The translations under genes were made by a program, and so were the position numbers. The notes below the pieces were generated by a model. It made no database searches. It was given only the letters and a program-made list of their open reading frames with translations, and was not told the origin of the DNA. Source: Escherichia coli (GTDB lineage Bacteria > Pseudomonadota > Gammaproteobacteria > Enterobacterales > Enterobacteriaceae). From it: 64,000 nucleotides of DNA. This document shows positions 36,063 through 57,339 of the stretch, piece after piece. Each line of letters starts with the position of its first letter. Positions within the stretch are counted from its first letter, which is position 1. The stretch lies in the NCBI RefSeq assembly GCF_013122565.1, contig NZ_CP053258.1; one strand, 5' to 3'.

Positions 36063-36139
<77 letters not shown>

Positions 36140-36357
36140 CCACCCCGCGTCCGTGGATGCGCACTATACTCCGCTCGCGTTTTCATGCAACCTTTTTTTT
36201 ACCCCGATCACGGTTCTGGCATGATTTTGAACAAAAACAAATCACTAAAGCCTATTTTTTGTGCAAAATTTGCGTCAGGGAGAGGCTGCTCATTTCATTA
36301 AACGCGGCGGTTTGTTATCTTCGTTGCGCCTTATTTTTTAACCTGAAGAAGAGAACA

Positions 36358-37455
36358 ATGAAAGGACGTTGGGTAAAGTACCTTCTTATGGGCACGGTTG
36401 TGGCAATGCTTGCCGCCTGCTCTTCCAAACCAACCGATCGCGGACAGCAATATAAAGACGGGAAATTTACCCAGCCTTTCTCTCTGGTGAACCAGCCAGA
36501 TGCCGTTGGCGCGCCGATTAACGCCGGTGATTTTGCTGAGCAAATTAACCATATCCGTAATTCGTCACCGCGTCTGTATGGCAACCAGAGTAATGTTTAT
36601 AACGCGGTGCAAGAGTGGCTGCGCGCAGGCGGTGATACCCGCAATATGCGCCAGTTCGGCATTGATGCCTGGCAGATGGAAGGTGCCGACAACTATGGTA
36701 ACGTGCAGTTTACAGGCTATTACACGCCGGTAATTCAGGCGCGCCATACCCGCCAGGGCGAGTTCCAGTATCCGATTTACCGTATGCCGCCAAAACGTGG
36801 TCGTCTGCCGTCTCGTGCGGAGATCTACGCGGGGGCATTGAGCGATAAATACATCCTCGCTTACAGCAACTCTCTGATGGATAATTTCATTATGGATGTG
36901 CAGGGTAGTGGGTATATCGACTTTGGTGATGGCAGCCCCCTTAACTTTTTCAGCTATGCAGGGAAAAACGGTCATGCCTATCGCAGCATTGGTAAGGTGC
37001 TGATCGACCGTGGCGAAGTGAAAAAAGAAGATATGTCGATGCAAGCGATTCGTCACTGGGGCGAAACACACAGTGAAGCCGAGGTTCGCGAGCTGCTGGA
37101 ACAGAACCCGTCTTTTGTCTTCTTTAAACCGCAATCTTTTGCACCGGTGAAAGGGGCAAGTGCGGTGCCGCTGGTTGGTCGTGCTTCTGTTGCCTCTGAT
37201 CGTTCCATTATTCCGCCAGGTACTACCTTGCTGGCAGAAGTGCCGTTACTGGATAATAACGGCAAATTTAATGGTCAGTACGAACTGCGTCTGATGGTGG
37301 CGCTGGATGTCGGTGGCGCAATCAAAGGCCAACACTTCGATATCTATCAAGGGATCGGGCCGGAAGCCGGACACCGTGCAGGTTGGTACAACCACTATGG
37401 ACGGGTTTGGGTACTGAAAACGGCTCCGGGCGCAGGTAACGTCTTTAGCGGCTGA
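36358..37455 (+). CDS. mltA: Membrane-bound lytic murein transglycosylase A
   Basis: Start at MKGRWVKYLLMGTVVAMLAACSS (lipoprotein signal, ATG 36358), 365 aa; the track ORF from 36037 is an upstream extension that would overlap the tRNA. Confidence 0.92.
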   Translation: MKGRWVKYLLMGTVVAMLAACSSKPTDRGQQYKDGKFTQPFSLVNQPDAVGAPINAGDFAEQINHIRNSSPRLYGNQSNVYNAVQEWLRAGGDTRNMRQFGIDAWQMEGADNYGNVQFTGYYTPVIQARHTRQGEFQYPIYRMPPKRGRLPSRAEIYAGALSDKYILAYSNSLMDNFIMDVQGSGYIDFGDGSPLNFFSYAGKNGHAYRSIGKVLIDRGEVKKEDMSMQAIRHWGETHSEAEVRELLEQNPSFVFFKPQSFAPVKGASAVPLVGRASVASDRSIIPPGTTLLAEVPLLDNNGKFNGQYELRLMVALDVGGAIKGQHFDIYQGIGPEAGHRAGWYNHYGRVWVLKTAPGAGNVFSG

Positions 37456-37543
37456 TGTGATATTCTGTATGCCGTTTTGACGGATATGACAGGGTGAGGG
37501 GTAACCTTACATCCTGATTATTGACTAAGTGCGTGTTGTTCAT

Positions 37544-37641
37544 GCCGGATGCGGCGTGAACGCCTTATCCGGCCTACAAATCATGCAAATCCAAAATATT
37601 GCAGGAGTTATGTAGGCCTGATAAGCGTAGCGCATCAGGCA
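37544..37641. repeat. BIME: two inverted REP elements
   Basis: GCCGGATGCGGCGTGAACGCCTTATCCGGCCTACA (37544-37578) and the inverted copy TGTAGGCCTGATAAGCGTAGCGCATCAGGCA (37611-37641). Confidence 0.75.
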
Positions 37642-37693
37642 ATTATGCGTTTAGGGTGAGGGATAACCTCACCCTTTTTAATTCAGAGGTGCT

Positions 37694-38500
37694 ATGTCTG
37701 TTGTAATTAGTGATGCCTGGCGTCAGCGTTTTGGCGGCACTGCGCGTCTGTATGGTGAAAAAGCGTTGCAACTGTTTGCTGACGCGCATATTTGTGTGGT
37801 CGGTATTGGCGGTGTCGGTTCCTGGGCGGCGGAAGCGCTGGCGCGCACGGGGATTGGCGCAATCACGCTTATCGATATGGATGATGTGTGCGTCACCAAT
37901 ACCAATCGGCAAATTCATGCCCTGCGCGATAACGTTGGGCTGGCAAAAGCGGAAGTTATGGCGGAGCGTATTCGCCAGATTAACCCGGAGTGCCGTGTAA
38001 CGGTGGTGGATGATTTCGTGACGCCGGATAACGTAGCGCAGTATATGAGCGTGGGTTATTCGTACGTGATTGATGCCATTGATAGTGTACGGCCCAAAGC
38101 GGCGCTGATTGCTTATTGTCGGCGCAATAAAATCCCACTGGTCACAACCGGTGGCGCGGGTGGGCAGATTGATCCGACGCAGATTCAGGTTACCGATCTG
38201 GCGAAAACGATTCAGGACCCGCTGGCGGCGAAGTTGCGTGAGCGCCTGAAAAGCGATTTTGGCATAGTGAAAAACAGTAAAGGTAAGCTCGGCGTGGATT
38301 GCGTGTTCTCTACCGAAGCATTGGTGTACCCGCAGTCAGACGGTACGGTGTGTGCTATGAAAGCCACGGCAGAAGGGCCGAAGCGGATGGATTGTGCATC
38401 TGGATTTGGCGCGGCGACGATGGTGACCGCCACCTTTGGTTTTGTTGCGGTTTCTCATGCGCTGAAGAAGATGATGGCGAAAGCGGCGCGTCAGGGGTAA
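37694..38500 (+). CDS. tcdA: tRNA threonylcarbamoyladenosine dehydratase (ThiF/MoeB-like E1 fold)
   Basis: 268 aa; nucleotide-binding motif VVGIGGVGSWAAEALARTG; synteny with csdA and csdE. Confidence 0.9.
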   Translation: MSVVISDAWRQRFGGTARLYGEKALQLFADAHICVVGIGGVGSWAAEALARTGIGAITLIDMDDVCVTNTNRQIHALRDNVGLAKAEVMAERIRQINPECRVTVVDDFVTPDNVAQYMSVGYSYVIDAIDSVRPKAALIAYCRRNKIPLVTTGGAGGQIDPTQIQVTDLAKTIQDPLAAKLRERLKSDFGIVKNSKGKLGVDCVFSTEALVYPQSDGTVCAMKATAEGPKRMDCASGFGAATMVTATFGFVAVSHALKKMMAKAARQG

Positions 38501-38506
38501 ACAATC

Positions 38507-38540
38507 AGGTCGGATGCGACGCGAACGTCTTATCCGACCT
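38507..38540. repeat. REP palindrome between convergent tcdA and csdE
   Basis: AGGTCGGATGCGACGCGAACGTCTTATCCGACCT. Confidence 0.7.
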
Positions 38541-38550
38541 GGTTCTGTGC

Positions 38551-38994
38551 TTAAACCTGCTTCGCCGCAGCGATAATCGCCTCGCTTAACGCATTCAACC
38601 CCTGGCTGCGTGAGGCGCTAAGGTGCGCACGCAATCCCAGCTCATCAAACAATGCCAGCGGCGACTGTGCCTGCAATTCGGCGGCGGTTTTCCCCTCAAC
38701 GGCAGTCAACAACACCGCCAGCAGGCCGCGCACAATGCGCCCTTCACTGTCGCCAAAGAAGTGCATTTTACCGTTTTCAGCCACGGTATATCCGAGCCAG
38801 ACGCGGTTTTCGCATCCGGCAATCTCTTTAGCCTGCGCTTTTAACTCGTCTGGCAAAGCCGGAAGCTGTTTCCCCAGCATGATCAACTGGCGATATTTAT
38901 CTTCCCATTGCGTCAACGGTGCGAAGGTATTGCGTAACGTTTCTGCGGTTACGGTTGTGCCGAACGGATGTCCGGCGAATTGCGGGTTCGTCAT
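38551..38994 (-). CDS. csdE: Sulfur acceptor protein CsdE (SufE-like)
   Basis: 147 aa; SufE-family sequence; adjacent to and overlapping csdA. Confidence 0.9.
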
Positions 38995-40199
38995 TAATCC
39001 ACCAATAATTCCAGCGCGCGGTCAACGGCATTCACCAGCGCATCCACATCACTCTTTGTATTATATGGCGCAAAAGAGGCGCGCAGAGTGCCGGTTACGC
39101 CTAATTCTGCCAGTAGCGGCTGAGCGCAATGCTGCCCGGCCCGCAGGGCAATACCGTACTCCGCCAGCAGCGTCACCATATCGCTGTGATGAACACCCGC
39201 GAAATCAAAGGCCAGCAGGCTGGAATCCTGGCAGCGGAATGAGCGGAAGCCAGGACGTTTTGCCAGCGCATCTTCCGCCAGCGTTGCTAAGCTACGGCTC
39301 CAGCTTTCGGCCTGGTTGATATCGTAATCTGCCAGCCATTCCAGCGCCGCGCTTAATCCTATGACACCAGCGACATTTGGCGTTCCGGCTTCCAGTTTCC
39401 ACGGCGCAGATTGAGTCGTGAAGCCGTCAAAACTCACTTCGTGAACCATTTTGCCACCGCCCAGCCAGGGCGACATCGCTTCCAGCAGTTCTGGTTTGCC
39501 ATACAGCACGCCGATACCTGTCGGGCCATACAGTTTGTGACCTGAAAAAGCATAGAAATCAATATCCAGTTGCTGAACATCCGCGGGGAAATGCACCGCC
39601 CCCTGAGCACCATCAACCATCACTACCATCCCGGCTGAATGAGCAAAGGTAATCGCTCGCGCCAGATCCGGGCAACCGCCAGTAACGTTCGACATCTGAC
39701 CCAACGCCAGAATCCGACTACGGGGAGTAATCAGTTCTGGCAACAAATCGACATCCGGCAGTCGCTGCGCATTAAGCGGCAATTTCACCACTTTGGCTCC
39801 AGTTTGTTGGGCGACCATCAGCCAGGGAACGAGGTTAGCGTGATGCTCTGCCACGCTGACAATAATCTCATCGCCCGGTTGCAGACGCGGACGCGCATAG
39901 CATTGTGCCACCATGTTGATGGATTCAGTGGTGCCGCGCGTCCAGACGATATTTTTGTCATACGATGCATTCAGTAATTGTGCCACTTTTTCCCGCGCAG
40001 CTTCATAACGCGCGGTCAGGCGTTGGGCTTCGGCAAACTGGCTGCGATGGACGTTTCCGGCGCTCAGGCTGTAAAACTGTCGGGTGGCTTCAACCACGGC
40101 TTCAGGTTTAAGCGCGGTCGCGGCGCTGTCGAGATAGACGCCCGCATCCTGTAGTGCGGGAAACTGGGCGCGAAACTGCGCGGGATTAAAAACGTTCAT
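38994..40199 (-). CDS. csdA: Cysteine desulfurase / cysteine sulfinate desulfinase CsdA
   Basis: Start at [16 protein letters not shown] (ATG 40197-40199), 401 aa; class V aminotransferase-like; the track ORF is extended 12 codons upstream. Confidence 0.9.
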
Positions 40200-40387
40200 G
40201 GTACTCCTCGGCTTGATGCACCGATCGTGACGCAAAATTCACTTTGATACAAGGATAGTGCTAACCATCAGAATTATCTGGATATCCTGGCGAAGCCGCG
40301 TAAGTAACATATGCTGAATAGTGTTAGGCATTAATTTTAGCCTGTTAATCAATACTATTAAGATTTATTAATCGCTTTAAGGAGAAG

Positions 40388-40618
40388 ATGATGAAAAAGA
40401 CTGCCGCAATTATTTCTGCCTGTATGCTGACTTTTGCCCTGAGCGCCTGTTCCGGTTCAAACTATGTGATGCACACCAATGACGGACGTACCATCGTCTC
40501 TGACGGCAAACCACAGACTGATAACGATACCGGTATGATTTCGTATAAAGACGCTAATGGCAACAAACAGCAGATCAACCGTACTGACGTGAAAGAGATG
40601 GTCGAACTGGATCAGTAA
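40388..40618 (+). CDS. ygdI: Small lipoprotein, DUF903 family
   Basis: 76 aa; lipobox LSAC; paralog of ygdR at 6774. Confidence 0.85.
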
Positions 40619-40634
40619 TTCGCGATCGCAAGGT

Positions 40635-40840
40635 AAAAAAAAGCACCGCAATTAGGCGGTGCTACATTAATCACTATGGACAGACAGGGTAAATGTACAG
40701 GAAGTGAAAAAAGGTAGCTTTGCTACCATGGTCTGAATCGCAGACCAATTGCAAACACAACAACACAACATCACAACCGTAAGCCAAAAGTTCACCAGAA
40801 CACGCATTCCGATAAAACTTTTCGTTCCGGCTCAGGAAGT
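40635..40840 (-). ncRNA. gcvB: GcvB small RNA
   Basis: Minus-strand read begins ACTTCCTGAGCCGGAACGAAAAGTTTTATCGG and ends GCACCGCCTAATTGCGGTGC plus U-run; includes the GT-rich stretch TGTTGTGTTGTTGTGTT; 206 nt, divergent from gcvA. Confidence 0.88.
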
Positions 40841-40968
40841 GCCGCCACTATAGGTATTTGCTGGTAGAAGCTCAACGGACAATTTATAATGGCTCAGATT
40901 AAAAAAACTAATAGGTTACACAGTGTGATCTAATTGTTAAATTCATTTAACATCAAAGTTTAAAAGCC

Positions 40969-41886
40969 ATGTCTAAACGATTACCACCGCTAAATGCCTT
41001 ACGAGTTTTTGATGCCGCAGCACGCCATTTAAGTTTCACTCGCGCAGCAGAAGAGCTTTTTGTGACCCAGGCCGCAGTAAGTCATCAAATCAAGTCTCTT
41101 GAGGATTTTCTGGGGCTAAAACTGTTCCGCCGCCGTAATCGTTCACTCCTGTTGACCGAGGAAGGTCAAAGCTATTTCCTCGATATCAAAGAGATATTTT
41201 CGCAATTAACCGAAGCGACGCGTAAACTCCAGGCCCGTAGCGCCAAGGGGGCGTTGACGGTCAGTTTACTCCCTAGTTTTGCCATTCATTGGTTGGTTCC
41301 GCGACTTTCCAGCTTTAATTCAGCTTATCCGGGAATTGACGTTCGAATCCAGGCGGTTGATCGTCAGGAAGATAAGCTGGCGGATGATGTTGATGTGGCG
41401 ATATTTTATGGTCGGGGCAACTGGCCGGGGCTACGGGTGGAAAAACTGTACGCCGAATATTTATTGCCGGTGTGTTCGCCTCTACTGCTGACTGGCGAAA
41501 AACCCTTGAAGACCCCGGAAGATCTGGCTAAACATACGCTATTACATGATGCGTCACGCCGTGACTGGCAGACATATACCCGACAATTGGGGTTAAATCA
41601 TATCAACGTTCAGCAAGGGCCAATTTTTAGCCATAGCGCCATGGTGCTGCAAGCGGCTATCCACGGGCAGGGAGTGGCGCTGGCAAATAACGTGATGGCG
41701 CAATCTGAAATTGAAGCCGGACGTCTTGTTTGCCCGTTTAATGATGTTCTGGTCAGTAAAAACGCTTTTTATCTGGTTTGTCATGACAGCCAGGCAGAAC
41801 TGGGTAAAATAGCCGCCTTTCGCCAATGGATCCTGGCGAAAGCCGCTGCTGAACAAGAAAAATTCCGCTTTCGTTATGAACAATAA
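40969..41886 (+). CDS. gcvA: Glycine cleavage system transcriptional activator, LysR family
   Basis: 305 aa; LysR-type HTH N-terminus. Confidence 0.92.
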   Translation: MSKRLPPLNALRVFDAAARHLSFTRAAEELFVTQAAVSHQIKSLEDFLGLKLFRRRNRSLLLTEEGQSYFLDIKEIFSQLTEATRKLQARSAKGALTVSLLPSFAIHWLVPRLSSFNSAYPGIDVRIQAVDRQEDKLADDVDVAIFYGRGNWPGLRVEKLYAEYLLPVCSPLLLTGEKPLKTPEDLAKHTLLHDASRRDWQTYTRQLGLNHINVQQGPIFSHSAMVLQAAIHGQGVALANNVMAQSEIEAGRLVCPFNDVLVSKNAFYLVCHDSQAELGKIAAFRQWILAKAAAEQEKFRFRYEQ

Positions 41887-41904
41887 TTTACGTAGGGTAC
41901 GACC

Positions 41905-42300
41905 ATGACCAGCCGTTTTATGCTGATTTTCGCCGCCATTAGCGGCTTCATTTTTGTGGCTCTGGGCGCTTTTGGCGCGCATGTGTTAAGTAAAACCATG
42001 GGGGCCGTTGAGATGGGCTGGATCCAGACCGGCCTCGAATACCAGGCGTTTCATACGCTGGCGATCTTAGGTCTGGCGGTGGCAATGCAGCGTCGCATCA
42101 GTATCTGGTTTTACTGGAGTAGCGTTTTCCTCGCGTTAGGCACGGTGCTGTTCAGCGGCAGCCTTTATTGCCTGGCACTGTCCCATCTGCGTTTGTGGGC
42201 GTTTGTCACTCCGGTTGGCGGCGTGAGCTTCCTTGCGGGCTGGGCGTTAATGTTAGTTGGTGCTATCCGTTTAAAGCGCAAGGGCGTAAGTCATGAATAA
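41905..42300 (+). CDS. ygdD: Inner membrane protein, DUF423
   Basis: 131 aa, four hydrophobic segments; overlaps the rlmM start. Confidence 0.85.
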
Positions 42301-43393
42301 GGTTGTATTGCTGTGCCGTCCGGGCTTTGAAAAAGAGTGCGCCGCAGAAATTACCGATAAAGCCGGCCAGCGGGAAATTTTCGGTTTTGCCCGCGTGAAA
42401 GAGAATGCGGGTTATGTCATTTATGAATGTTATCAACCTGATGATGGCGATAAGTTAATCCGTGAGCTGCCGTTCAGTTCATTAATTTTTGCCCGCCAGT
42501 GGTTTGTGGTGGGGGAACTCCTGCAGCATTTGCCGCCAGAAGATCGTATTACCCCCATTGTCGGCATGTTGCAGGGCGTAGTAGAGAAGGGCGGTGAACT
42601 GCGTGTTGAAGTTGCCGATACCAACGAAAGCAAAGAGTTGCTGAAATTCTGCCGTAAATTCACTGTTCCGCTACGCGCTGCCTTGCGCGATGTCGGGGTG
42701 CTGGCGAACTATGAAACGCCGAAGCGTCCGGTTGTGCATGTATTCTTTATTGCACCAGGCTGCTGCTATACCGGTTACTCATACAGCAACAATAATTCGC
42801 CGTTCTATATGGGCATTCCGCGCCTGAAATTTCCGGCAGATGCGCCGAGTCGTTCCACGCTCAAACTGGAAGAGGCATTTCATGTGTTTATTCCTGCGGA
42901 TGAGTGGGATGAACGCCTGGCGAACGGGATGTGGGCGGTGGATTTAGGCGCTTGCCCTGGCGGCTGGACCTACCAACTGGTGAAGCGCAACATGTGGGTT
43001 TATTCCGTCGACAACGGCCCGATGGCGCAAAGTCTGATGGATACCGGGCAGGTGACGTGGCTGCGGGAAGATGGTTTCAAATTCCGTCCGACACGCAGCA
43101 ATATCTCCTGGATGGTATGCGATATGGTTGAAAAACCGGCGAAAGTTGCGGCATTGATGGCGCAGTGGCTGGTTAATGGCTGGTGCCGTGAAACCATTTT
43201 CAACCTCAAACTGCCGATGAAAAAACGCTACGAAGAAGTATCACACAATCTGGCGTATATTCAGGCACAGCTTGATGAACATGGCATAAATGCTCAGATT
43301 CAGGCGCGGCAGTTGTATCACGATCGCGAAGAAGTGACGGTGCACGTCCGCCGCATCTGGGCTGCGGTGGGTGGTCGTCGCGACGAGCGATAA
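42293..43393 (+). CDS. rlmM: 23S rRNA 2'-O-ribose C2498 methyltransferase
   Basis: 366 aa; synteny with ygdD and fucR. Confidence 0.88.
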
Positions 43394-43436
43394 CAGGCAA
43401 GGCCGGGGCGTCGTCTCCGGCCTGCTACCCTTTCCG

Positions 43437-44168
43437 TCAGGCTGTTACCAAAGAAGTTGCAACCTGGCGCTCATCAGAAATAATGTGCGTTACCTCATCC
43501 AGATGCCCGATGCGGGCTTCCCCTGAACGATTAAATTTACTTTTATCAATCAATAACAACGATTGCGCGGCACGTTTTAATAGCATCGATTTGTAATCAG
43601 CGTTGATGGCATTGGAGTCCCACAGTGCGCCGCTGCTATCGATCCCTTCACAAGAAAAAATAAACAGATCGATTTCCAGCGATTTAAGTTGGGAAATCAG
43701 CGAGGGATTGACGTAACAGCCATATTTGCGCTCAAGTGTGCCGCCGGAACTGATCAGTTGAATGCGTTCGCGTTTACCGAGTTCATGGCAAATCGGATGG
43801 CTATTGGTGAAGACCAGAATGTTGATGTCAGGCAACTGGCGTGCCAGATACCAGCAGGTTGAACTGGCGTCTAAGGCTATTACCATCCCTTCTTCAATCC
43901 ATGCGAGCGCCTCGCGCGCGATATCTGCTTTATGCGCATAATGGCTTTTCAGCCGGATGTGAAAGGGATCGCCACTGTCTTGATTTTGACGGTGGATATA
44001 TTTAGCGCGCCCATGATTGCGCAGAATTTTACCCTGCGTCTGTAATTCATTGAGATCGCGACGAATGGTTTCTTTACTGACCTTTAGCTGTTCAGAGAGA
44101 GCTTCCGTGGTCAGGCTGGTATGGTTCAGCAGCAGGTCGACTATCGCTTGCTGGCGTGCCGCTTTCAT
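43437..44168 (-). CDS. fucR: L-fucose operon activator, DeoR family
   Basis: Start at MKAARQQAIVDLL (243 aa); the track ORF begins 3 codons earlier (MKNMKAAR). Confidence 0.9.
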   Translation of the reverse strand: MKAARQQAIVDLLLNHTSLTTEALSEQLKVSKETIRRDLNELQTQGKILRNHGRAKYIHRQNQDSGDPFHIRLKSHYAHKADIAREALAWIEEGMVIALDASSTCWYLARQLPDINILVFTNSHPICHELGKRERIQLISSGGTLERKYGCYVNPSLISQLKSLEIDLFIFSCEGIDSSGALWDSNAINADYKSMLLKRAAQSLLLIDKSKFNRSGEARIGHLDEVTHIISDERQVATSLVTA

Positions 44169-44225
44169 ATTTTTCACCCCATCATTCGATAACCGCCCGC
44201 GTCATGCGGGCGTACCGGTATGAGA

Positions 44226-44648
44226 TTACGGTGTTACCCCTTTTTTTAAAAGAATATTCCCGTACTTCGCTCGTTCGCCTGTGATAACGATCGCAAAGGC
44301 TTTTTGTGCCCGTTCATAAAACGCAAAACGATTGATGCGGATGATGTCAGGACACGGGGCTTGTAGTGAAAGCGCATTACGGTAACGTCGTTCTACTTCA
44401 GGATCGAGAGTGTCACCTTCTACCGCCGCCATCATCACCAGCGGCGGTGCATAACTGTCCAGTTCAAATAACGGGATAATCGCCTGGAGCAAGTCGCTCA
44501 CCAACAGGCCATCAGCGCGGATCACCTGCGGTCCCATCGAATGGGCGGGAAAGTGAGCATCGGAAAAAATAATTTCATCTCCATGCCCCATCTCTGCCAG
44601 CACTTTCAATAGTTCGGGAGAAATTAACGGCGAAATTGTTTTCAGCAT
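44226..44648 (-). CDS. fucU: L-fucose mutarotase
   Basis: 140 aa; RbsD/FucU family; synteny. Confidence 0.9.
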
Positions 44649-44649
44649 T

Positions 44650-46068
44650 TCACACTTCCTCTATAAATTCAGGTTCAGTTTGCGGGTAGAAATAACGGTA
44701 CTGATAATGAATCTGTGCGCGGGCTTCTTCCGGGCTGTTAAATTCCCCTATGCCATACCAACCGAACAGCGCAGCTCCTGCGACGGTCGTTTCGGCGTCG
44801 TCGAGAACTTTTACCGGAATATCAAGCATATTGGCTTTAATCTGATTCCACAATGTGTTGCGACTTCCTCCGCCGACTAACAATAATTCAGAGGCTTTAA
44901 AGTGCCCGATTTTTTCCAGCATCTGTAGATTGCGCTGTAATTGCGCAGTTAACCCTTCCAGCGCCGCGCGATAGAAATGCCCCCGCGTGGTATTAAGCGT
45001 CACTCCTTGCCAGCCAGCGTTCTGACACGACAATAAATCACACTGCATTTTCACGCCATCCGCGCCAGGCGCGATCAGACGAGCCTCTTCAATCAACATT
45101 TGCCAAGGTGTTTCAGCCGTCCAGAACAGTTTTCTCACCCATTCCAGCACGCCTGATGCCAGCCATTGCATACCTGGGTTATACAACCCTGCCTGGCTAT
45201 CCAGTTCGCAGGTGGAACCGGCGTACTGACTTAACAGCGAAGTATCAACCTGGGCGCTGCGAACCATTAAAATTTCCCATGTACCTGAAGAGAGCACGGG
45301 TTCATTTTGTTCAGCACCAGCGCCAAAAAGGGCGAACTGGGTATCGTGACCTGCGGAAATCACCGGTATGCCAACGGGTAAGCCGAGCATTGCTGCGGCG
45401 CTGTTCTGTAGCGTACCAATCTGTTCACCCGCTTCCACCAGACGAGGGAAAAGTCGGCGTGGAATACCGGTGGCTTGTAAAATTTGCGGACTGAAATCGC
45501 GTTGCTGGATATCCAGCATCTGGCTGGTTCCGGCCATCGTGATATCAGTAGTGAATTCACCGGTTAAACGGTGGTTAATCAGCGACGAAATAAAGAGCCA
45601 GGCGTGCGCGCGTTCCAGCAGTTGTGGATGATTTTCTTTCAACCACACCAACTTATATAACGTATTGAAACTAAAGGCTCCGACGCCAGAAATAGCCTGC
45701 AACTGCTGTGCGGAGATCAACCGTTCAATATTGTCCATAACCGCTGCTGTTCGCGGACATTTCCAGCTAATGATCGGATAGAGCAGATTGCCTTGCTTAT
45801 CTACCAGAGCGCCATCCACACCAAAGGTGGTGACGGCGATACCGCGGATGTGGCATTCAGTCAGTTCACTATTGATTTGCCGACAGCAATCAGAAAAGCG
45901 TTGCAAAATGGCGTCTAAAGACCACTGGTGCCAGGTGTTGTTTTCCATCGCGATATCGCTGGCATTAGGCGTTGAGGCGCGGGCAACAATTTTTCCCTGC
46001 CGATTAACCGCGATGGCCCTGACATTGGTCGCACCACAGTCGAGTACCAGGATAACTTCTTGTTTCAT
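44650..46068 (-). CDS. fucK: L-fuculokinase
   Basis: FGGY kinase family; start at [17 protein letters not shown] (472 aa); alternative upstream ATG at 46098. Confidence 0.88.
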
Positions 46069-46086
46069 AATCGCTCCTGCAATATA

Positions 46087-46156
46087 GCCGGATAACATTG
46101 CTTATCCGGCTAACCACTCTTGCTTGTTCAGGCCCGGTAGCCGGAGCGACCGGGCA
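46087..46156. repeat. REP-like palindromes between fucK and fucI
   Basis: GCCGGATAACATTGCTTATCCGGC and GCCCGGT-AGCCGGAGCG-ACCGGGC palindromes. Confidence 0.5.
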
Positions 46157-46176
46157 TCACATCAGGGAGTAATGTA

Positions 46177-47952
46177 TTAACGCTTGTACAACGGACCGTA
46201 GTTCTGGCAAGCGCGGTAATCCTGGCCTTCAATATCCATGCCGTGCGCAGCCCAGGCAGAAGGACGATACACTTTGGTCTCTTCAACGTTGTGCATACAT
46301 ACCGGGATACGCAGCATGGAGGCAAGAGTGATAAAGTCTGCGCCAACGTGGCCGATGGTTAGAACCCCGTGGTTAGCGCCCCAGTTCGCCATTACCGAGT
46401 ACACATCCGTAAACGGCCCTTTACCGGTGAGGCGCGGTGCAAACCAGGTGGTTGGCCAGGTTGAGTTGGTGCGTTTGTTGAGGATGTCATGCACATCCTT
46501 CGGCAATTCCACGCTCCAGCCTTCCGCGATTTGCAGTACCGGTCCCAGGCCTTTGATGATGTTGACACGAGTCATGGTGAACGGGACGCCGCCTTCGGTA
46601 AGGAAGCGGGAAGAGTAACCGCCGCCACGGAAGTATTCGTGGATCGCCGGGCACCATTCGGTAGCGGCGAGGCAAGCGTCAGCCTCTTGCTGAGAGATTT
46701 CCCAGTGCGGCTTCATCGTCGGGTTACCTTCGCTGTCGCGTTGTTTACAGGAACCGTCCAGCGCAGCAGAACCTGAGTTGATCAAATGGATGATGCCGTG
46801 TTCTGCCAGTCCATGGAGTTTATGCCCCGTTACACGCTCAATTGCTTCTGGTGACCAGTAGGTACGCACATCGGCAAATACCTGAGCGGTGCCGGTGAGT
46901 TGGTGACCCATTAGCATTGCCACGCCGTTAAGACTGTCGTTTTCGGTCGCCACGACAAAGGGTTCGCGCACGCCATTCCAGTCAAATGAACTGTTGAGGA
47001 TCGCTTCGGCGGTGTCACCATTGGGATATTGATCGGTCCAGTGACGTTGTCCCTGGAAGCCCGCAGCGATGGCGTTGTAGCCAAGTGATTCTTCCACGCG
47101 ACCAATATCGGCCAGTTTGCTGTTGCCTTGCATCATGTCGCGGATACACATCGCCATCAGTAAACTTTCGCGCAGAACTGCGCGGCTTTGCTCGGCATTG
47201 CGTTGATACTGTTTGTTATTTTCATCTTCGCCATAGCGGAAGTTTTTATCAGCCCAGGCCAGTGCCATTTCCAGTTCGGCTTCGTCGTAAATCTTCTGAT
47301 CGATACGGCGGCGCAGTTCGGTCATATCCACCGCCTGGACTTTCATTCCCAGCCAGGATTCAAAGAAGTTGTGATCAACGATGGAACCGGCGATACCCAT
47401 CGAAACGCCGCCCAGCGACAGGTAGCTTTTACCTTTCATGCTGGCGACGGCCAAACCGGCGCGGGCAAAGCGCAGCAGTTTTTCTTCAACATCGGCAGGA
47501 ATCGATGTGTCATCGGCATCCTGAACGTCATGACCGTAAATAGAGAATGCCGGGATGCCTTTCTGGCTGTGAGCTGCCAGAGCTGCTGCCAGGTAAACAG
47601 CGCCGGGGCGTTCAGTGCCGTTAAAGCCCCAAATGGCTTTCGGGCGGGTTGGATCCATGTCGATGGTTTCACTGCCATAGCACCAGCAAGGCGTTACCGT
47701 AATGGTGAGGCCTACATTCTGGCTGCTGAATTTTTCTTCGCAAGCAGCGGCTTCAGCCATACCCGCGATACAGGTATCGGAAATGACACACTCGACGGCA
47801 GCTCCGCAGGCATGGCGCAGTTTCTCGGTCAGCAGTGCAGCCGTGGCTTTCGCCATATTCATTGTTTGTTCTTCAAGCGACTCACGAACACCCATGCGAC
47901 GACCGTCAATAACCGGGCGGATACCAATTTTCGGTAAGCTGATTTTTTTCAT
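46177..47952 (-). CDS. fucI: L-fucose isomerase
   Basis: 591 aa; synteny within fucPIKUR. Confidence 0.92.
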
Positions 47953-47984
47953 TACAGATTCCTCACTTTATTCGGAAAATATGT

Positions 47985-49301
47985 TCAGTTAGTTGCCGTT
48001 TGAGAACGGAAACGGGCAAAGATAAAGATGACCGCGAAGCAGAGTGCGGGGATCAGTTCAGCAGTGGGGATGTTGCCCGCCGCGTCACTGACAAAACCCA
48101 TGACCGGAGTGACAATACCGCCGCCAATGATGGTCATAACGATGAAGGACGAACCGTATTTGGTGTCCTGGCCGAGATTCTTAATGCCCAGCGAGAAGAT
48201 TGTTGGGTACTGAATCGACATAAAGGCGCTGCATAAAGTCAGGGCTATTAAGCCCACATGACCGCCAGCGAAGGCTGAGATCAGGCACAGTGCCATAGCG
48301 ATTAATGCGTAGGCGGCCAGGACTTTGTGTGGTGCGAAGCGACTGATGAGCCAGGTACCGGTGAAACGACCAATAAAGAAGCACACCATGGTTCCGGTTA
48401 AATAGTTAGCGGCAAAGCCTGCAGTCATACCTGGAATTTCTTCTACAGCGTAGCGAATCAAATAGCTCCAGCAGGCCGTTTGTGCGCCGACGTAGCAGAA
48501 TTGCGCTAATACTGCCCAGCGCCAGTGGCGAATACGCGCCAGGCGAGAAAGCGATGCGGAGAACGATCCTTGTTTGGCGTCACTGTGATTATCACTCTGC
48601 AATGCCGGGAATTTCGTCAGCATGATCAGCAGGGCGACCAGTAACACGATAGCCACGATGATCATATAAGGTGTCTGTACCGATAATACCAGGCTGTGTT
48701 TATACGCACTCAATTGCTCTGGAGACATTTTATCGAGAACGTCTTGCGATTGATGTGGCACGTTAGACAAAATAAGACTTTGCCCAAAGACAACCGCGAT
48801 AATTGCGCCAAATGAGTTAAATGTTTGCGCAAGATTTAAGCGGAAGTGACCACTGCTTTCCGGCCCTAATACCGTAACAAAAGGGTTTGCGGCAGTTTCC
48901 AGACAACCTAATCCGGCTGCAATAATAAATAGGCCAACTAAAAATAAGGTGTAGTTCATTATTTCTGCAGCGGGCCAGAATAATGCAGCACCCAGGGCAT
49001 ATAAAAATAATCCGGTAATAATCCCTGCTTTATAACTGAGTTTTTTCATCAATATCCCAGCAGGGATTGGGATAATGAAATAACCAAAGTAAAAGGCCGA
49101 TTGGATCAGGCCAGCCTGGAAATTTGTCAGCGTAAAAGCCTGCTGGAATTGAGGTAATAATATGTCGTTAAGATTATTGGCTACCGCCCAAAGAAAAAAC
49201 AGTGAGCACAGCAGCGCGAATGGAATAATGTAACTTCTGCTTTGCCCTGCATCTTTATCTACCGCACGGTAACTCTGCGTTTGTATTGATGTGTTTCCCA
49301 T
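47985..49301 (-). CDS. fucP: L-fucose:H+ symporter (MFS)
   Basis: 438 aa, 12-helix transporter; first gene of the fucPIKUR unit. Confidence 0.92.
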   Translation of the reverse strand: MGNTSIQTQSYRAVDKDAGQSRSYIIPFALLCSLFFLWAVANNLNDILLPQFQQAFTLTNFQAGLIQSAFYFGYFIIPIPAGILMKKLSYKAGIITGLFLYALGAALFWPAAEIMNYTLFLVGLFIIAAGLGCLETAANPFVTVLGPESSGHFRLNLAQTFNSFGAIIAVVFGQSLILSNVPHQSQDVLDKMSPEQLSAYKHSLVLSVQTPYMIIVAIVLLVALLIMLTKFPALQSDNHSDAKQGSFSASLSRLARIRHWRWAVLAQFCYVGAQTACWSYLIRYAVEEIPGMTAGFAANYLTGTMVCFFIGRFTGTWLISRFAPHKVLAAYALIAMALCLISAFAGGHVGLIALTLCSAFMSIQYPTIFSLGIKNLGQDTKYGSSFIVMTIIGGGIVTPVMGFVSDAAGNIPTAELIPALCFAVIFIFARFRSQTATN

Positions 49302-49847
49302 AGCATCCTCTTAGGTTCAGAAGCTTAAGCACGTAATCGGTTATGTTTTCAAAAGTGCAAAACCAGCGAGTTCGGGCTTCATATCAGTGAATATTTGCCT
49401 GTCTGAAATGAACTCATGGATTCATTTTCAAATAAAAAACGCTCTGTAATATGACGGCGGTCACACTTATTAGCTGGAAGGTGACTTTATGTGACTACCA
49501 TCACTTTAATAATCGAAATTTCATGCCCGTTTCAGAAAATAAATCATAAAAAACACAAACCAGATGCCCGTATTAATTGTTTATGCCGAAAACGGGCATT
49601 CCTGGCTTGGGTGAATATAAAAATGACCGTTTTGATAAATATTTTTAAGAGCGGTCATTTTTAATGGGGTTATAAAAAGAGAACTTGCAGTTATTTACTG
49701 TGATTAGTTGAACCAGATCACAAAATATAAGCTTGTGAATTTCTTTCTTGTTAATCAGGAAGAAGATCGTGGGTAATTAAACGCCTAATTCAATAGTGTG
49801 AAAGGAACAACATTATTGCCCTGTTTTGAATCAGAGAGAGGTAGCTA

Positions 49848-50495
49848 ATGGAACGAAATAAACTTGCTCGTCAGATTATTGACACTTGCCTGGAAATGAC
49901 CCGCCTGGGACTGAACCAGGGGACAGCGGGGAACGTCAGTGTACGTTATCAGGATGGGATGCTGATTACGCCTACAGGCATTCCATATGAAAAACTGACG
50001 GAGTCGCATATTGTCTTTATTGATGGCAACGGTAAACATGAGGAAGGAAAGCTCCCCTCAAGCGAGTGGCGTTTCCATATGGCGGCCTATCAAAGCAGAC
50101 CGGATGCCAACGCGGTTGTTCACAATCATGCCGTTCATTGCACAGCAGTTTCCATTCTTAACCGACCGATCCCCGCTATTCACTACATGATTGCGGCGGC
50201 TGGCGGTAATTCTATTCCTTGCGCGCCTTATGCGACCTTTGGAACACGCGAACTTTCTGAACATGTTGCGCTGGCTCTCAAAAATCGTAAGGCAACTTTG
50301 TTACAACATCATGGGCTTATCGCTTGTGAGGTGAATCTGGAAAAAGCGTTATGGCTGGCGCATGAAGTTGAAGTGCTGGCGCAACTTTACCTGACGACCC
50401 TGGCGATTACGGACCCGGTGCCAGTGCTGAGCGATGAAGAGATTGCCGTAGTGCTGGAGAAATTCAAAACCTATGGGTTACGGATTGAAGAGTAA
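49848..50495 (+). CDS. fucA: L-fuculose-1-phosphate aldolase
   Basis: 215 aa class II aldolase; divergent from fucP across a 546-bp control region. Confidence 0.92.
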   Translation: MERNKLARQIIDTCLEMTRLGLNQGTAGNVSVRYQDGMLITPTGIPYEKLTESHIVFIDGNGKHEEGKLPSSEWRFHMAAYQSRPDANAVVHNHAVHCTAVSILNRPIPAIHYMIAAAGGNSIPCAPYATFGTRELSEHVALALKNRKATLLQHHGLIACEVNLEKALWLAHEVEVLAQLYLTTLAITDPVPVLSDEEIAVVLEKFKTYGLRIEE

Positions 50496-50522
50496 TTTCG
50501 TAAAGCAACAAGGAGAAGGATG

Positions 50523-51671
50523 ATGGCTAACAGAATGATTCTGAACGAAACGGCATGGTTTGGTCGGGGTGCTGTTGGGGCTTTAACCGATGAGGTGAAA
50601 CGCCGTGGTTATCAGAAGGCGCTGATCGTCACCGATAAAACGCTGGTGCAATGCGGCGTGGTGGCGAAAGTGACCGATAAGATGGATGCTGCAGGGCTGG
50701 CATGGGCGATTTACGACGGCGTAGTGCCCAACCCAACAATTACTGTCGTCAAAGAAGGGCTCGGTGTATTCCAGAATAGCGGCGCGGATTACCTGATCGC
50801 TATTGGTGGTGGTTCTCCACAGGATACTTGTAAAGCGATTGGCATTATCAGCAACAACCCGGAGTTTGCCGATGTGCGTAGCCTGGAAGGACTTTCCCCG
50901 ACCAATAAATCTAGTGTACCGATTCTGGCAATCCCCACCACAGCAGGCACTGCGGCAGAAGTGACCATTAACTACGTGATCACTGACGAAGAAAAACGGC
51001 GCAAGTTTGTTTGCGTTGATCCGCATGATATCCCGCAGGTGGCGTTTATTGACGCTGACATGATGGATGGTATGCCTCCAGCGCTGAAAGCTGCGACGGG
51101 TGTCGATGCGCTCACTCATGCTATTGAGGGGTATATTACCCGTGGCGCGTGGGCGCTAACCGATGCGCTGCACATTAAAGCCATTGAAATCATTGCTGGG
51201 GCGCTGCGAGGATCGGTTGCTGGTGATAAGGATGCCGGAGAAGAAATGGCGCTCGGGCAGTATGTTGCGGGTATGGGCTTCTCGAATGTTGGGTTAGGGT
51301 TGGTGCATGGTATGGCGCATCCACTGGGCGCGTTTTATAACACTCCACACGGTGTTGCGAACGCCATCCTGCTACCGCATGTTATGCGTTATAACGCTGA
51401 CTTTACCGGTGAGAAGTACCGCGATATCGCGCGCGTTATGGGCGTGAAAGTGGAAGGTATGAGCCTGGAAGAGGCGCGTAATGCCGCTGTTGAAGCGGTG
51501 TTTGCTCTCAACCGTGATGTCGGTATTCCGCCACATTTGCGTGATGTTGGTGTACGCAAGGAAGACATTCCGGCACTGGCGCAGGCGGCACTGGATGATG
51601 TTTGTACCGGTGGCAACCCGCGTGAAGCAACGCTTGAGGATATTGTAGAGCTTTACCATACCGCCTGGTAA
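50523..51671 (+). CDS. fucO: L-1,2-propanediol oxidoreductase (iron-type alcohol dehydrogenase)
   Basis: Start at MANRMILNETAWFGRGAV (382 aa); Fe-ADH-like sequence. Confidence 0.92.
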   Translation: MANRMILNETAWFGRGAVGALTDEVKRRGYQKALIVTDKTLVQCGVVAKVTDKMDAAGLAWAIYDGVVPNPTITVVKEGLGVFQNSGADYLIAIGGGSPQDTCKAIGIISNNPEFADVRSLEGLSPTNKSSVPILAIPTTAGTAAEVTINYVITDEEKRRKFVCVDPHDIPQVAFIDADMMDGMPPALKAATGVDALTHAIEGYITRGAWALTDALHIKAIEIIAGALRGSVAGDKDAGEEMALGQYVAGMGFSNVGLGLVHGMAHPLGAFYNTPHGVANAILLPHVMRYNADFTGEKYRDIARVMGVKVEGMSLEEARNAAVEAVFALNRDVGIPPHLRDVGVRKEDIPALAQAALDDVCTGGNPREATLEDIVELYHTAW

Positions 51672-51689
51672 ATGCGCTGATTTGATAAT

Positions 51690-51719
51690 GCCGGATGCGA
51701 CGTTTGCGGCGTATCCGGC
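51690..51719. repeat. REP palindrome between convergent fucO and xni
   Basis: GCCGGATGCGACGTTTGCGGCGTATCCGGC. Confidence 0.7.
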
Positions 51720-51725
51720 ACGCCG

Positions 51726-52592
<867 letters not shown>

Positions 52593-53960
52593 TTAATCGC
52601 AGGCAACGATCTTCATTGCCAGGCCGCCGCGAGAGGTTTCGCGGTACTTGGCATTCATATCTTTACCTGTTTCGTACATGGTTTCGATAACTTTATCGAG
52701 GCAGACGCGCGGCTCGCTGGTACGGCGCAGCGCCATACGTGCGGCGTTCACCGCTTTTACTGCCGCAATGGCGTTACGCTCGATGCATGGCACCTGTACC
52801 TGTCCGGCAACCGGGTCACACGTCAGACCGAGGTTGTGCTCCATGGCGATTTCCGCCGCGATGCACACCTGCGCCGGGCTTGCACCTAACAGTTCTGCCA
52901 GACCAGCCGCCGCCATTGAACACGCCACGCCAACTTCACCCTGGCAACCCACTTCAGCACCAGAAATCGACGCGTTCATCTTATAAAGAGAACCAATGGC
53001 GCTGGCTACCAGCAGGTAACGAGCCAGTGAGTTAGCGTTCACTTCGCGGATAAACTTGTCGTAGTACGCCAGCACTGCCGGGATAATCCCGCACGCACCG
53101 TTAGTCGGCGCAGTCACCACGCGTCCGCCAGCAGCGTTCTCTTCGTTCACTGCCAGTGCAAACATGTTGATCCAGTCAACAACCGCCATCGGGTCAGTGG
53201 TGGTTTTATCCTGGCTGACCAGCATCCGGCGTAGTGCCGCAGCACGGCGTGGAACGCGCAGTTTGCCAGGCAACACGCCTTCGGTGGAAATACCGCGCTC
53301 AATACCGCCACGCATGACTTCCCATACGTTCGCCAGGTGCTGTTCCAGCTCTTCTTTGCTGTGCAGCGCCAGCTCGTTTTTCATCATCAAGCCAGAGAGT
53401 GACAGCCCGGTTTCCTGACAATGTTTTTGCAGATCGGCTGCTGAACTGTACGGATAAGGAACTTCAACCGGTGCGCTATTCTGCTGGCCAAAATGCTCTT
53501 CATCAACGATAAAGCCACCGCCAATAGAGTAGTAAGTCTGGCTGTAAACGACTTTATCGCCCGCCAGCGCGGTAATGCGCATACCGTTTTCATGCAGAGA
53601 AAGGTTGTCGGCATGGAAGTTCATGCACTGATCAACCGGGAACTCCACTTCATGCTGACCGTTTGCCAGCATCAGGCGACCATGAGTATTCACATCCTGA
53701 ATAAAACCAGGGATGGAATCGATATCCACGGTATCCGGCAGGTTACCCGCCAGGCCCATAATAATGGCGATATCAGTGTGGTGGCCTTTACCGGTCAGAG
53801 AGAGCGAGCCGTACACGTCAACCACCACGCGGGTCACGTCTTTAAGCAGGTTACGGGCAATCAGATCGTCGGTAAATTGTTTACCCGCTTTCATTGGTCC
53901 AACGGTATGAGAACTGGAAGGGCCAATGCCGATTTTGAAAATATCGAATACGCTAATCAT
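52593..53960 (-). CDS. sdaB: L-serine dehydratase 2
   Basis: 455 aa; Fe-S serine dehydratase family; downstream of sdaC. Confidence 0.92.
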
Positions 53961-54017
53961 AGGAAATACATCGCGTTAAAACGGAGGAAGCGCCGCCCGA
54001 AAGCGGCGCGAAAGGAC

Positions 54018-55307
54018 TTAGCTGAACAGAGAGTAGAAGATTGCGGAGATTGCAATCAGACCCATCACGACAACGAATACGTTGCTGATGTGACCGCTGT
54101 ACTTACGCATTGCCGGTACTTTCTGAATTGCGTACATCGGCATCAGGAACAGGATCATCGCGATGATTGGGCCGCCCAGGGTTTCAATCATACCCAGGAT
54201 GCTCGGGTTCAGGGTGGCAACAATCCAGGTCGTTACCAGCATGAACAGCGCAGTGATACGGTTCAGCTTGTTGATTTCGATAGACTTACCTTTACCACGC
54301 AGAGATTTAATCACCATACCGTTGAAGCCTTCACGTGCGCCCAGGTAGTGGCCGAGGAAGGATTTGGTGATAGCGATAATCGCGATAATCGGAGCCATCC
54401 ACGCGATAACCGGTGCGTTAAAGTGGTTAGCCAGGTAAGACAGAATCGAGATGTTCTGCTCTTTAGCCGCAGCCAGGTCTGCCGGAGTCAGGCTCAGTAC
54501 ACAGCTGAAGACGAAGAACATTACGGTCAGCACCATCATGATGTGTGCGAATGCCAGGATCTTCGAGCATTTCTGTTCTGCCATATCGCCGTACTCTTCA
54601 CGCTTCGCAACGGCGAAAGAAGAGATGATCGGAGAGTGGTTGAACGAGAATACCATTACCGGAATTGCCAGCCACAGGGTCATCCACAGACCGTTTCCGG
54701 TTGCAGATGCAGTGTCCAGAGACAGCGTTTCCAGTGCTGCGCCGTTCCACTGCGGGATCAGGTACAGAGCCAGCAGCATCAGTACGCCAACAAACGGGAA
54801 CACCAGAATACTCATCGCTTTAACGATCATCTGCTCACCGAAGCGAACGATGGTCATCATACCCACGATCAGGATCAGCGACAGAATCGCACGCGGCGGT
54901 GGCGTCATACCCAGCTGGTGAGACATGAAGCTTTCAACTGTATTGGTGATTGCCACGCTATAAACCAGCAGGATCGGGTAGATAGCGAAGAAGTAGAGCA
55001 GGGTAATCAGTTTACCTGCGCCAATACCAAAGTGTTCTTCTACAACCTCGGTGATGTCTTCGCCCGGGTTTTTACCAGACAGTACGAAGCGAGTCAGGCC
55101 GCGGTGAGCAAAAAACGTCATCGGGAACGCAAGGATAGCCATGATGATCAGCGGGATCATACCGCCAACACCGGCGTTGATTGGCAGGAACAGCACGCCC
55201 GCGCCGATTGCCGTGCCGTAAAGGCCCAGCATCCACATGGTGTCTGTCTTGCGCCAGGCACTACGAGAGTCTTTCGACGCAATCGTGCTGGTTTGAGTCG
55301 TTTCCAT
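54018..55307 (-). CDS. sdaC: Serine:H+ symporter
   Basis: 429 aa hydrophobic transporter, HAAAP family. Confidence 0.92.
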
Positions 55308-55863
55308 CTATTTCTCCTGGAGGAATGCAAATAATTCAGCTTTTAGCCAGTTCAGCCCGGGAAGGTGCCTGACCGTAAAAATGAAATCTGTCTATCGGCG
55401 ATGGCTTAATCATTTACCGCCGTAATAATTTGAGGGCGGAAAGATACACACAAGTTATGTATCTATCAGTGATCTTGATCCCAAATACAATAATCTACTT
55501 GGAAGATAGATTATCCCAACGCTTTACTCTGTAAATCAAAAGTAAAAGAGAATTTAAGGGCAATATTTGCCCATTAAACGACATCTGACTTCTTCCGGGG
55601 CGCGCAATATATGTAGGTTGAACTGAAAAAATCAATACTTTTAGTTAATCATGGCGATAATTTCTTTTTCATAGCGATAAAATACGGTTTATGAAAATAG
55701 GGAAACGTTTGCGTTGCAACATAAATTGTATGACATATTAACTGTGATGATATTTGTCGCGTGAGGGTGGTAAGAAACATTCATATAACAAATGAAATGA
55801 GTTGATGAGTAAGTGACCAAAAACGAGAAAACCCGGCAACAAACGTCACCGGGGGAGGGGAGA

Positions 55864-57228: not shown

Positions 57229-57339
57229 GAAAAACTCCTTATGGGACGAATATCGTCATTCCCTTTGATTACAATAGCCCTGCCTGATGACCTTTCACAA
57301 CCTTCTGCGTGAATCCAGCACGCAAAATTGAGAAAAAAT

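Follow-up and report, generated by a model that had tools for sequence, protein, structure and literature searches.

REPs, or palindromic units (PUs), which are extragenic and highly repeated, are imperfect palindromes of 30-40 nt with a conserved GTAG/CTAC tetranucleotide at their foot (reviews); stabilisation of upstream mRNA and binding of IHF have been ascribed to them (reviews). Two kinds of BIME are distinguished in the reviews: BIME-1 is composed of a Y and a Z1 unit with a long conserved L linker, often with an IHF site, and occurs as a single copy of ~140 bp, whereas BIME-2 combines Y with Z2 units, joined by short S linkers, and forms tandem arrays. BIME-2 and atypical BIMEs have been credited with strong gyrase binding (review). 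The presence or absence ("excision") of a whole BIME-1 among E. coli isolates was reported by Bachellier et al. (1997), as that work is related in PMC1187871.

In this study, we analysed a window of 64,000 nt from Escherichia coli (GCF_013122565.1, contig NZ_CP053258.1; position 1 is its first letter), in which a first-pass annotation had placed a BIME and a terminator-like hairpin between mltA and tcdA. Elements of this kind are already known, as is the K-12 copy at the same locus, and the terminator is present in published 3'-end maps. The hairpin duplication and the dimorphism between alleles with the BIME (filled) and without it (empty) were absent from the first-pass annotation. Our preferred account, to which we assign a probability of roughly 0.8, is that a promoter-hairpin module between the two genes received a BIME-1 together with a duplication of its hairpin, and that the BIME is dispensable and has been repeatedly lost or amplified.

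The element between mltA and tcdA

The features of the locus, in window coordinates, are as follows.

36358..37455, + strand: mltA coding sequence, the upstream gene (stop TGA at 37453-37455; RefSeq annotation under matches)
37458..37466, + strand: extended -10-like motif TGnTAnnnT, TGATATTCT, putative tcdA promoter (predicted start ~37472-37474)
37491..37515, + strand: left, degenerate hairpin copy without a T-run, AGGGTGAGGGGTAACCTTACATCCT
37516..37652, no strand assigned: complete BIME-1 of 137 nt (left motif, Y REP, L linker, inverted Z1 REP, right motif)
37543..37577, + strand: Y-type REP (palindromic unit), ending in CTAC, TGCCGGATGCGGCGTGAACGCCTTATCCGGCCTAC
37578..37611, + strand: L linker, 34 nt, with the IHF-core-like ATCCAAAATATTG at 37589-37601
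37612..37641, - strand: Z1-type REP, inverted, beginning with GTAG on the + strand, GTAGGCCTGATAAGCGTAGCGCATCAGGCA
37653..37681, + strand: intrinsic terminator with a 9-bp stem and 5-nt loop (37653-37675), then TTTTAA
37686..38500, + strand: tcdA ribosome-binding site and coding sequence (GAGG 37686-37689, ATG 37694, ORF 37694..38500)

Both genes are on the + strand of the window, the map order in K-12 being reversed, and they are 97.6% (mltA, against b2813, 1098 nt) and 97.9% (tcdA, against b2812) identical to their K-12 counterparts. The mltA stop and the tcdA start are separated by a 238-bp spacer, as they are in K-12. Beyond tcdA, csdE and csdA are on the opposite strand and convergent with it in both the window and K-12, so tcdA and the csd genes do not form the unit from which the first-pass annotation had the BIME separating mltA. 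Between the stops of the convergent genes tcdA and csdE, 50 bp apart, is a lone degenerate REP-like palindrome, GGTCGGATGCGACGCGAACGTCTTATCCGACC (38509-38540), which is without a GCCTAC tail and gave a sub-threshold match to the Rfam family naRNA4; the sequence printed for the csdE "primary" 3' end in the K-12 Term-seq data, 2945008(+), includes the K-12 version of this palindrome.

No exact match to the window was found in 5426 complete E. coli genomes, the best being 99.0% identical over 20 kb, and the strain differs by 1-2% from all the complete E. coli genomes searched; other Escherichia species are more distant (90-96% identity). The 1.4 kb from mltA to tcdA (36900-38300) reached at most 97.9% identity among the 5426 genomes versus 99.0% for 38000-58000, which points to a locally divergent stretch, perhaps recombined, of a lineage outside that collection. 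A further difference from K-12 was observed between amiC and mltA, where the window has a single initiator-type tRNA-Met (CAT) gene (36073-36149, - strand) in place of the tandem pair metZ-metW of K-12; the Term-seq table names metV farther along. The ~80 nt between the single gene and the upstream ORF leave no room for further tRNA-Met copies.

The first-pass annotation had proposed two opposed REP palindromes, and its positions proved right to within 1 nt. Both units are imperfect palindromes of 30-40 nt with a GTAG/CTAC foot, and both are extragenic, between the mltA stop and the tcdA start. The first folds at -21.3 kcal/mol (z = -4.6) and the second, whose short sequence reads GCCTGATGCGCTACGCTTATCAGGCCTAC on the - strand, at -12.9 kcal/mol. 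A search with the REP tail CTTATCMGGCCTAC bore out membership of the REP family, as it occurs exactly twice in the 64-kb window, at these two units and on opposite strands; when up to two mismatches were allowed there were three matches, the third of which, elsewhere, needs both mismatches. In 100 shuffled sequences the mean number of matches with up to two mismatches was 0.38, and none of the 100 reached three. The region also matches a median of at least 40 places per E. coli genome and therefore represents a dispersed repeat.

The boundaries of similarity to other genomic copies are exactly 37516-37652 (query 117-253, 88.5% identity), and over these 137 nt the element is 88.5% identical to the BIME-1 between fepA and entD. 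Its left and right motifs, GATTATTGACTAAGTGCGTGTTGTTCA and ATTATGCGTTT, have variant forms in the fepA-entD copy. The L linker, unique within the window, can be aligned with its counterparts at fepA-entD and yaaX-yaaA, and 37577-37619 matches Rfam family RF02751 (ES036/CssrF) with 46.5 bits against a gathering threshold of 37.6 (E = 1.3e-7); a literature search on ES036/CssrF returned no relevant paper. We take the two units to be Y and Z1 by their consensus sequences, and this assignment is supported by the identity to the fepA-entD element. The opposed Y and Z1 units, the long and conserved L linker between them and the single unit of 137 nt in the window are all attributes of BIME-1, and the Z1 length of the second unit, the L linker and the single copy are at odds with BIME-2. 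By its sequence, then, the element is a BIME-1, the IHF-binding class, and not a gyrase-binding BIME-2. That the palindromes are chance inverted repeats outside the REP family has practically no probability, as the general abundance of short palindromes in intergenic DNA is all that speaks for it and it is contradicted by exact REP-tail matches on both arms (0.38 expected), dozens of matching places per genome, the identity to the fepA-entD copy over 137 nt and an Rfam match above threshold.

In the copy of the K-12 annotation used (NC_000913.3), REP and RIP features are lacking altogether, the known element at yaaX-yaaA included, and so the comparison with K-12 was made by sequence; it gave 97.5% identity over 204 nt of the mltA-tcdA stretch.

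Of the two DNA-binding proteins named in the first-pass annotation, IHF fits the BIME-1 class, but the remark on gyrase probably does not apply here, as strong binding of gyrase is a reported trait both in BIME-2 and in atypical BIMEs. In K-12, the IHF ChIP-chip data of Myers et al. (2013) include a region at 2943738-2944077 (U00096.2 coordinates), equivalent to window positions 37481-37820 and thus covering the whole BIME; the offset of ~1978 between K-12 genome versions used here is our own estimate, checked solely at the metZ promoter peak. As the region is 339 bp wide, its signal may come from another site. In the IHF literature searched, Myers et al. (2013) was the only source of IHF data specific to the locus.

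Within the linker, ATCCAAAATATTG has by our own reading two mismatches to WATCAANNNNTTR, which we take to be the IHF consensus core, whereas typical L linkers, ATTCAATATATTG, as seen in other Escherichia, have one mismatch to the consensus. The IHF core of the E. coli copy is therefore degraded relative to that in other Escherichia. The L linker of the window copy is a likely but putative IHF site.

The terminator hairpin and the putative tcdA promoter

The hairpin at 37653-37675 has the sequence AGGGTGAGG-GATAA-CCTCACCCT and is followed by TTTTAATT. Six of the nine pairs of its stem are G-C, and its fold (-17.6 kcal/mol, z = -4.6) is far steadier than that of shuffled sequence. A terminator scan of 37200-38000 identified this hairpin as the sole terminator-like site, with a predicted RNA 3' end at 37681; the tcdA ATG (37694) is 14 nt past the last T of the run, as the first-pass annotation had stated. 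Term-seq of K-12 (Adams et al. 2021) identified position 2945855(-), which precedes the tcdA ATG by 13 nt, as a 3' end, with the sequence ...GCCCUUUUUAA. That end had an average read count of 32337, a Rho score of 0.55 with no Rho termination region, an intrinsic-terminator score of 12.2 (cut-off 3 or more), and a read coverage of 107 upstream and 65 downstream (Adams et al. 2021). Its equivalent in the window is 37681. A GC-rich stem-loop directly before a U-run is thus present in the window, and Rho-independent 3' ends just past the stem are documented for the K-12 orthologue only. The hairpin and its T-run are, on the data for the K-12 orthologue, a true intrinsic terminator. The K-12 Term-seq and IHF ChIP-chip data together agree with a BIME and a terminator between the two genes. 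The window has CCTCA in place of the K-12 CCTCG and its stem is, if anything, better paired. We also considered that the hairpin might itself be a dispersed repeat and rejected this, as it is single-copy, or two-copy in filled alleles.

Since there are just 13 nt from the terminator 3' end to the ATG, transcripts of tcdA must start upstream of the hairpin. A simple sigma-70 promoter scan of 37200-38000 returned no site, and a relaxed scan returned, apart from an extended -10, weak -35/-10 pairs only, the -35 region being poor. Of 70 species loci, 32 had the extended -10-like motif TGnTAnnnT no further than 21 nt from the mltA stop (shuffled sequences: mean 2.2, maximum 10), a comparison that provides no probability as the loci are related. 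It was found in 21 of the 22 loci that have the GGGTGAG hairpin motif, and its variation falls on the least important positions of an extended -10. A sigma-70 ChIP-seq peak of K-12 at 2944078, labelled csdL (= tcdA), has been reported (Myers et al. 2013), and with the estimated offset it maps to ~37480 in the window, 10-20 nt from the predicted tcdA start; the published start-site tables that were searched had no entry for this gene. We infer that the tcdA promoter is the extended -10 at the mltA stop, upstream of the BIME. With the likely promoter there, the BIME would be inside a transcribed leader and 3' UTR rather than at a boundary: in filled alleles it is transcribed within the mltA 3' UTR and, probably, within a tcdA leader of ~210 nt as well. 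The hairpin would then end mltA transcripts and attenuate those from the tcdA promoter.

The stem GGGTGAGG/CCTCACCC was invariant, or changed in ways that preserve pairing through G-U, in 18 sequences from ~12 enterobacterial genera, whereas the loop varied in sequence and length and the upstream spacer was also free to vary. In the alignment of these sequences 98.8% of cells were paired and there were no double changes; a covariation test is uninformative here as the stem hardly varies. Such conservation could mean that the hairpin acts on tcdA above all, as a regulated attenuator or riboregulator, or that it is a palindromic DNA operator, and that it is not simply the terminator of mltA, in which case the conserved sequence would reflect recognition by a protein or RNA controlling read-through into tcdA. 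The position of the hairpin, between the inferred tcdA promoter and the ATG and 13 nt short of the latter, would suit this reading, as would the fall of K-12 coverage merely from 107 to 65 across a strongly scored terminator. However, folding revealed no anti-terminator structure or ligand-binding fold, the hairpin has no Rfam family, and other genera have unrelated hairpins at this place, or none, which suggests that position outweighs sequence. The operator variant is further opposed by every stem substitution keeping its pairing via G-U, as expected of an RNA helix. We therefore consider a mainly regulatory hairpin unlikely, though a serious candidate, and retain the plain terminator of mltA, which may also attenuate tcdA, as the preferred reading.

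A different arrangement was observed in loci of the Cedecea/Buttiauxella type (L043, L051, L057, L065, L069, L074 and others), which have another hairpin, GGGCTGTATAATCAGCCCG, with a T-run upstream of tcdA, where the GGGTGAG terminator sits in the loci that have it. Its loop holds TGTATAAT, a near-perfect extended -10, which suggests that the loop of this terminator may double as the promoter of the next gene.

Filled and empty alleles

The BIME-1 is bracketed by a direct repeat of 20 nt (37491-37510 and 37653-37672, 90% identity, spacing 162 nt), the left copy of which belongs to a degenerate version of the terminator hairpin (fold -15.8 kcal/mol). A 361-nt query with the gap at its centre was covered to 80% or more in 2751 of 5426 complete E. 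coli genomes, representing the filled state, and with longer flanks the locus was found in 5375 of the 5426. In an evenly spaced sample of 60 rows, 30 spanned 1401 bp and 28 spanned 1238-1239 bp. Empty alleles, the state of nearly all the other genomes, lack exactly the 162-163 bp between the repeats, including the left hairpin copy, and retain one perfect hairpin. They have at least three forms: one has the loop GGTAA, which among filled alleles is private to the left hairpin copy, another has CCTCG, private to the right copy in K-12-type filled alleles, and a third looks ancestral. In a tree of 1163 flanking sites, empty and filled alleles were intermixed, and some pairs had near-identical flanks.

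For the fepA-entD BIME-1, in contrast, the full 541-nt query was found in 5345 of the 5426 genomes and none of 24 sampled rows was shorter; no comparable flanking repeat was seen there (one allele, read by eye), and as this sets one locus against one other the contrast is illustrative.

Two other observations concern the repeated unit. In Escherichia sp. MOD1-EC7003 (L006, 1-785), at least 4.8 tandem units of 162 nt, each a BIME-1 plus one hairpin and 96% matching, run into the contig end, whereas BIME-1 is usually described as single-copy. In K-12, Term-seq in two growth conditions detected an antisense 3' end at 2946049/2946050 (+), approximately window 37486 (-), which is 5 nt beyond the left hairpin copy in the antisense direction; the window version of that copy folds weakly on the - strand (-6.5 kcal/mol, z = -0.5).

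The BIME appears dispensable, as it is missing from about half of E. coli with the locus otherwise unchanged. At the RNA level, the two REPs and their flanking motifs would fold very stably upstream of a 3' end protected by the terminator, the whole mltA 3' UTR having a predicted fold of -91.7 kcal/mol (z = -6.4 against shuffles), and at the DNA level the L linker would offer an IHF site. It is plausible, by analogy with other REPs, that the BIME adds to the stability of mltA mRNA or alters read-through into tcdA. A stronger proposal would be that the BIME is selected here, either stabilising mltA mRNA against 3' exonucleases or organising the DNA via IHF, and so setting the mltA/tcdA ratio. 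The effects on upstream mRNA and the IHF binding reported for REPs, the far better fold of the 3' UTR than of its shuffles, and the IHF occupancy in K-12 are all compatible with selection. Yet about half of E. coli genomes are without the BIME and show no other change at the locus, a stable terminator hairpin downstream already guards the 3' end, and the E. coli copy has a degraded IHF core compared with other Escherichia. Selection for the BIME at this site is accordingly improbable in our judgement, and we favour a dispensable element.

Proposed origin, loss and gain of the element

A single hairpin without a BIME was found in Salmonella, Enterobacter, Phytobacter, Leclercia, Huaxiibacter, Pseudenterobacter and others. 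The lone hairpin in these genera and the conserved stem indicate that the hairpin is older than the BIME. E. albertii and three other Escherichia that are not K-12-like are all filled, with the same right-hand junction, and the left hairpin of E. albertii is complete but diverged, which suggests that the whole 23-nt hairpin was duplicated.

These observations can be joined in a single sequence of events. The ancestral gap would have had an extended -10 tcdA promoter at the mltA stop and, ~20-30 nt on, a GC-rich hairpin with a U-run, ending 13 nt before the tcdA start, which would have terminated mltA transcripts and attenuated transcripts from the tcdA promoter. A 137-nt BIME-1 would then have come to sit directly upstream of the hairpin in an ancestor of Escherichia, with a second hairpin copy left on its far side; the right copy would have kept the U-run and its role in termination, and the left copy would have decayed. 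Recombination or slippage between the 20-25-nt copies could later have deleted the BIME on several occasions, so that about half of E. coli are left with one hairpin, and could have produced the tandem array of 162-nt units seen in a single Escherichia lineage. The direction of events, arrival followed by loss, is one we infer from the alleles compared. The filled Escherichia outgroups, the three empty forms and the mixing of filled and empty alleles on the tree make it the simplest reading that the filled state is ancestral for E. coli and that the BIME was lost several times between the hairpin copies, with varied crossovers, although recombination among E. coli lineages weakens any count of independent deletions. 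An ancestral polymorphism of filled and empty alleles may have contributed.

The opposite polarity would have the empty allele ancestral in E. coli and the BIME-1 as a recent, spreading insertion made by a REP-associated transposase, with the flanking repeat as its target-site duplication. The single hairpin of the outgroup genera is what this would predict, presence or absence of BIME-1 among isolates is already known, and TnpA-REP cleaves and recombines BIMEs in vitro (review). A recent insertion is quite improbable, however, given that E. albertii and every other Escherichia species or lineage examined besides E. coli, four in all, have the BIME at that junction, that two of the empty types bear substitutions private to the left or the right copy of filled alleles, and that flanks are near-identical in filled and empty alleles. 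In addition, enzymes of the IS200/IS605 type make no long target duplications (review), and the flanking direct repeats of 20-25 nt represent the whole hairpin, unlike the duplications of known transposases. Ancestral filling with repeated loss is thus retained for E. coli.

How the BIME-1 first came to be flanked by hairpins is a separate matter. Possibly, the terminator hairpin is a preferred landing site at which insertion duplicates the entire 23-nt hairpin, for example through staggered cuts at the base of an extruded hairpin, but we hold this to be rather doubtful. The layout of a left hairpin, a GATTnTTGACnAAG motif, REPs and a right hairpin is found in Escherichia and in one distant Kosakonia/Phytobacter-like genome (L026). 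If the two arose independently, the locus would preserve a rare footprint of BIME-1 movement; shared ancestry with repeated loss fits the L026 layout equally well. The gap of L026 (Kosakonia sp. S29) is 231 nt long and has a left hairpin GGGTGAGGACTATCTCACTCT, then GATTTTTGACAAAG, which may be compared with the left motif of the E. coli BIME-1, REP-like units, and an intact hairpin with a T-run. L017, which is related to L026, has a REP and no left hairpin copy. Five Citrobacter loci (L009, L028, L031, L032, L035) have another inverted REP pair, 2-3 nt past the mltA stop, in a gap that is without the GGGTGAGG hairpin and without TGnTAnnnT. The different REP pair of Citrobacter indicates that another REP family colonised the mltA-tcdA gap independently.

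In about half of E. coli a BIME is enclosed by a probable promoter on one side and an attenuator or terminator on the other, which amounts to a natural experiment, in which related filled and empty strains could reveal the effect of a BIME-1 on mRNA stability, on IHF-dependent organisation of DNA and on expression of tcdA, a tRNA-modification gene. The flanking hairpin duplication also offers a simple route for BIME-1 turnover, deletion or amplification mediated by the repeat, that requires no transposase.

The closest relatives of the window element are the BIME-1 (alias RIP or RIB) of K-12, including the mltA-tcdA (ygdL) copy of MG1655, which have the same Y unit, L linker, inverted Z1 unit and flanking motifs; like them, it is a single extragenic copy of 137 nt at the 3' end of a transcription unit. 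It is unlike a typical BIME-1 in being flanked by a 20-25-nt duplication of the adjacent terminator hairpin, and its IHF core strays further from the consensus than that of a typical L linker. BIME-2 and atypical BIMEs, the gyrase-binding REP clusters, belong to the same REP family and have the Y unit in common with the window element, but BIME-2 has Z2 units, S linkers and tandem arrays where the window element has a short Z1, an L linker and one copy. The hairpin resembles intrinsic terminators in its 9-bp GC-rich stem, 5-nt loop and U-run, with the K-12 3' end 6 nt past the stem, and departs from ordinary ones in its place, with an end 13 nt short of the next start codon and downstream of the probable tcdA promoter. 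As in the cases of Bachellier et al. as presented in PMC1187871, natural isolates either have or lack a whole BIME-1 at a fixed locus. At mltA-tcdA, the end points of the loss are the two hairpin copies, with at least two crossover positions, and the same repeats also allow tandem amplification.
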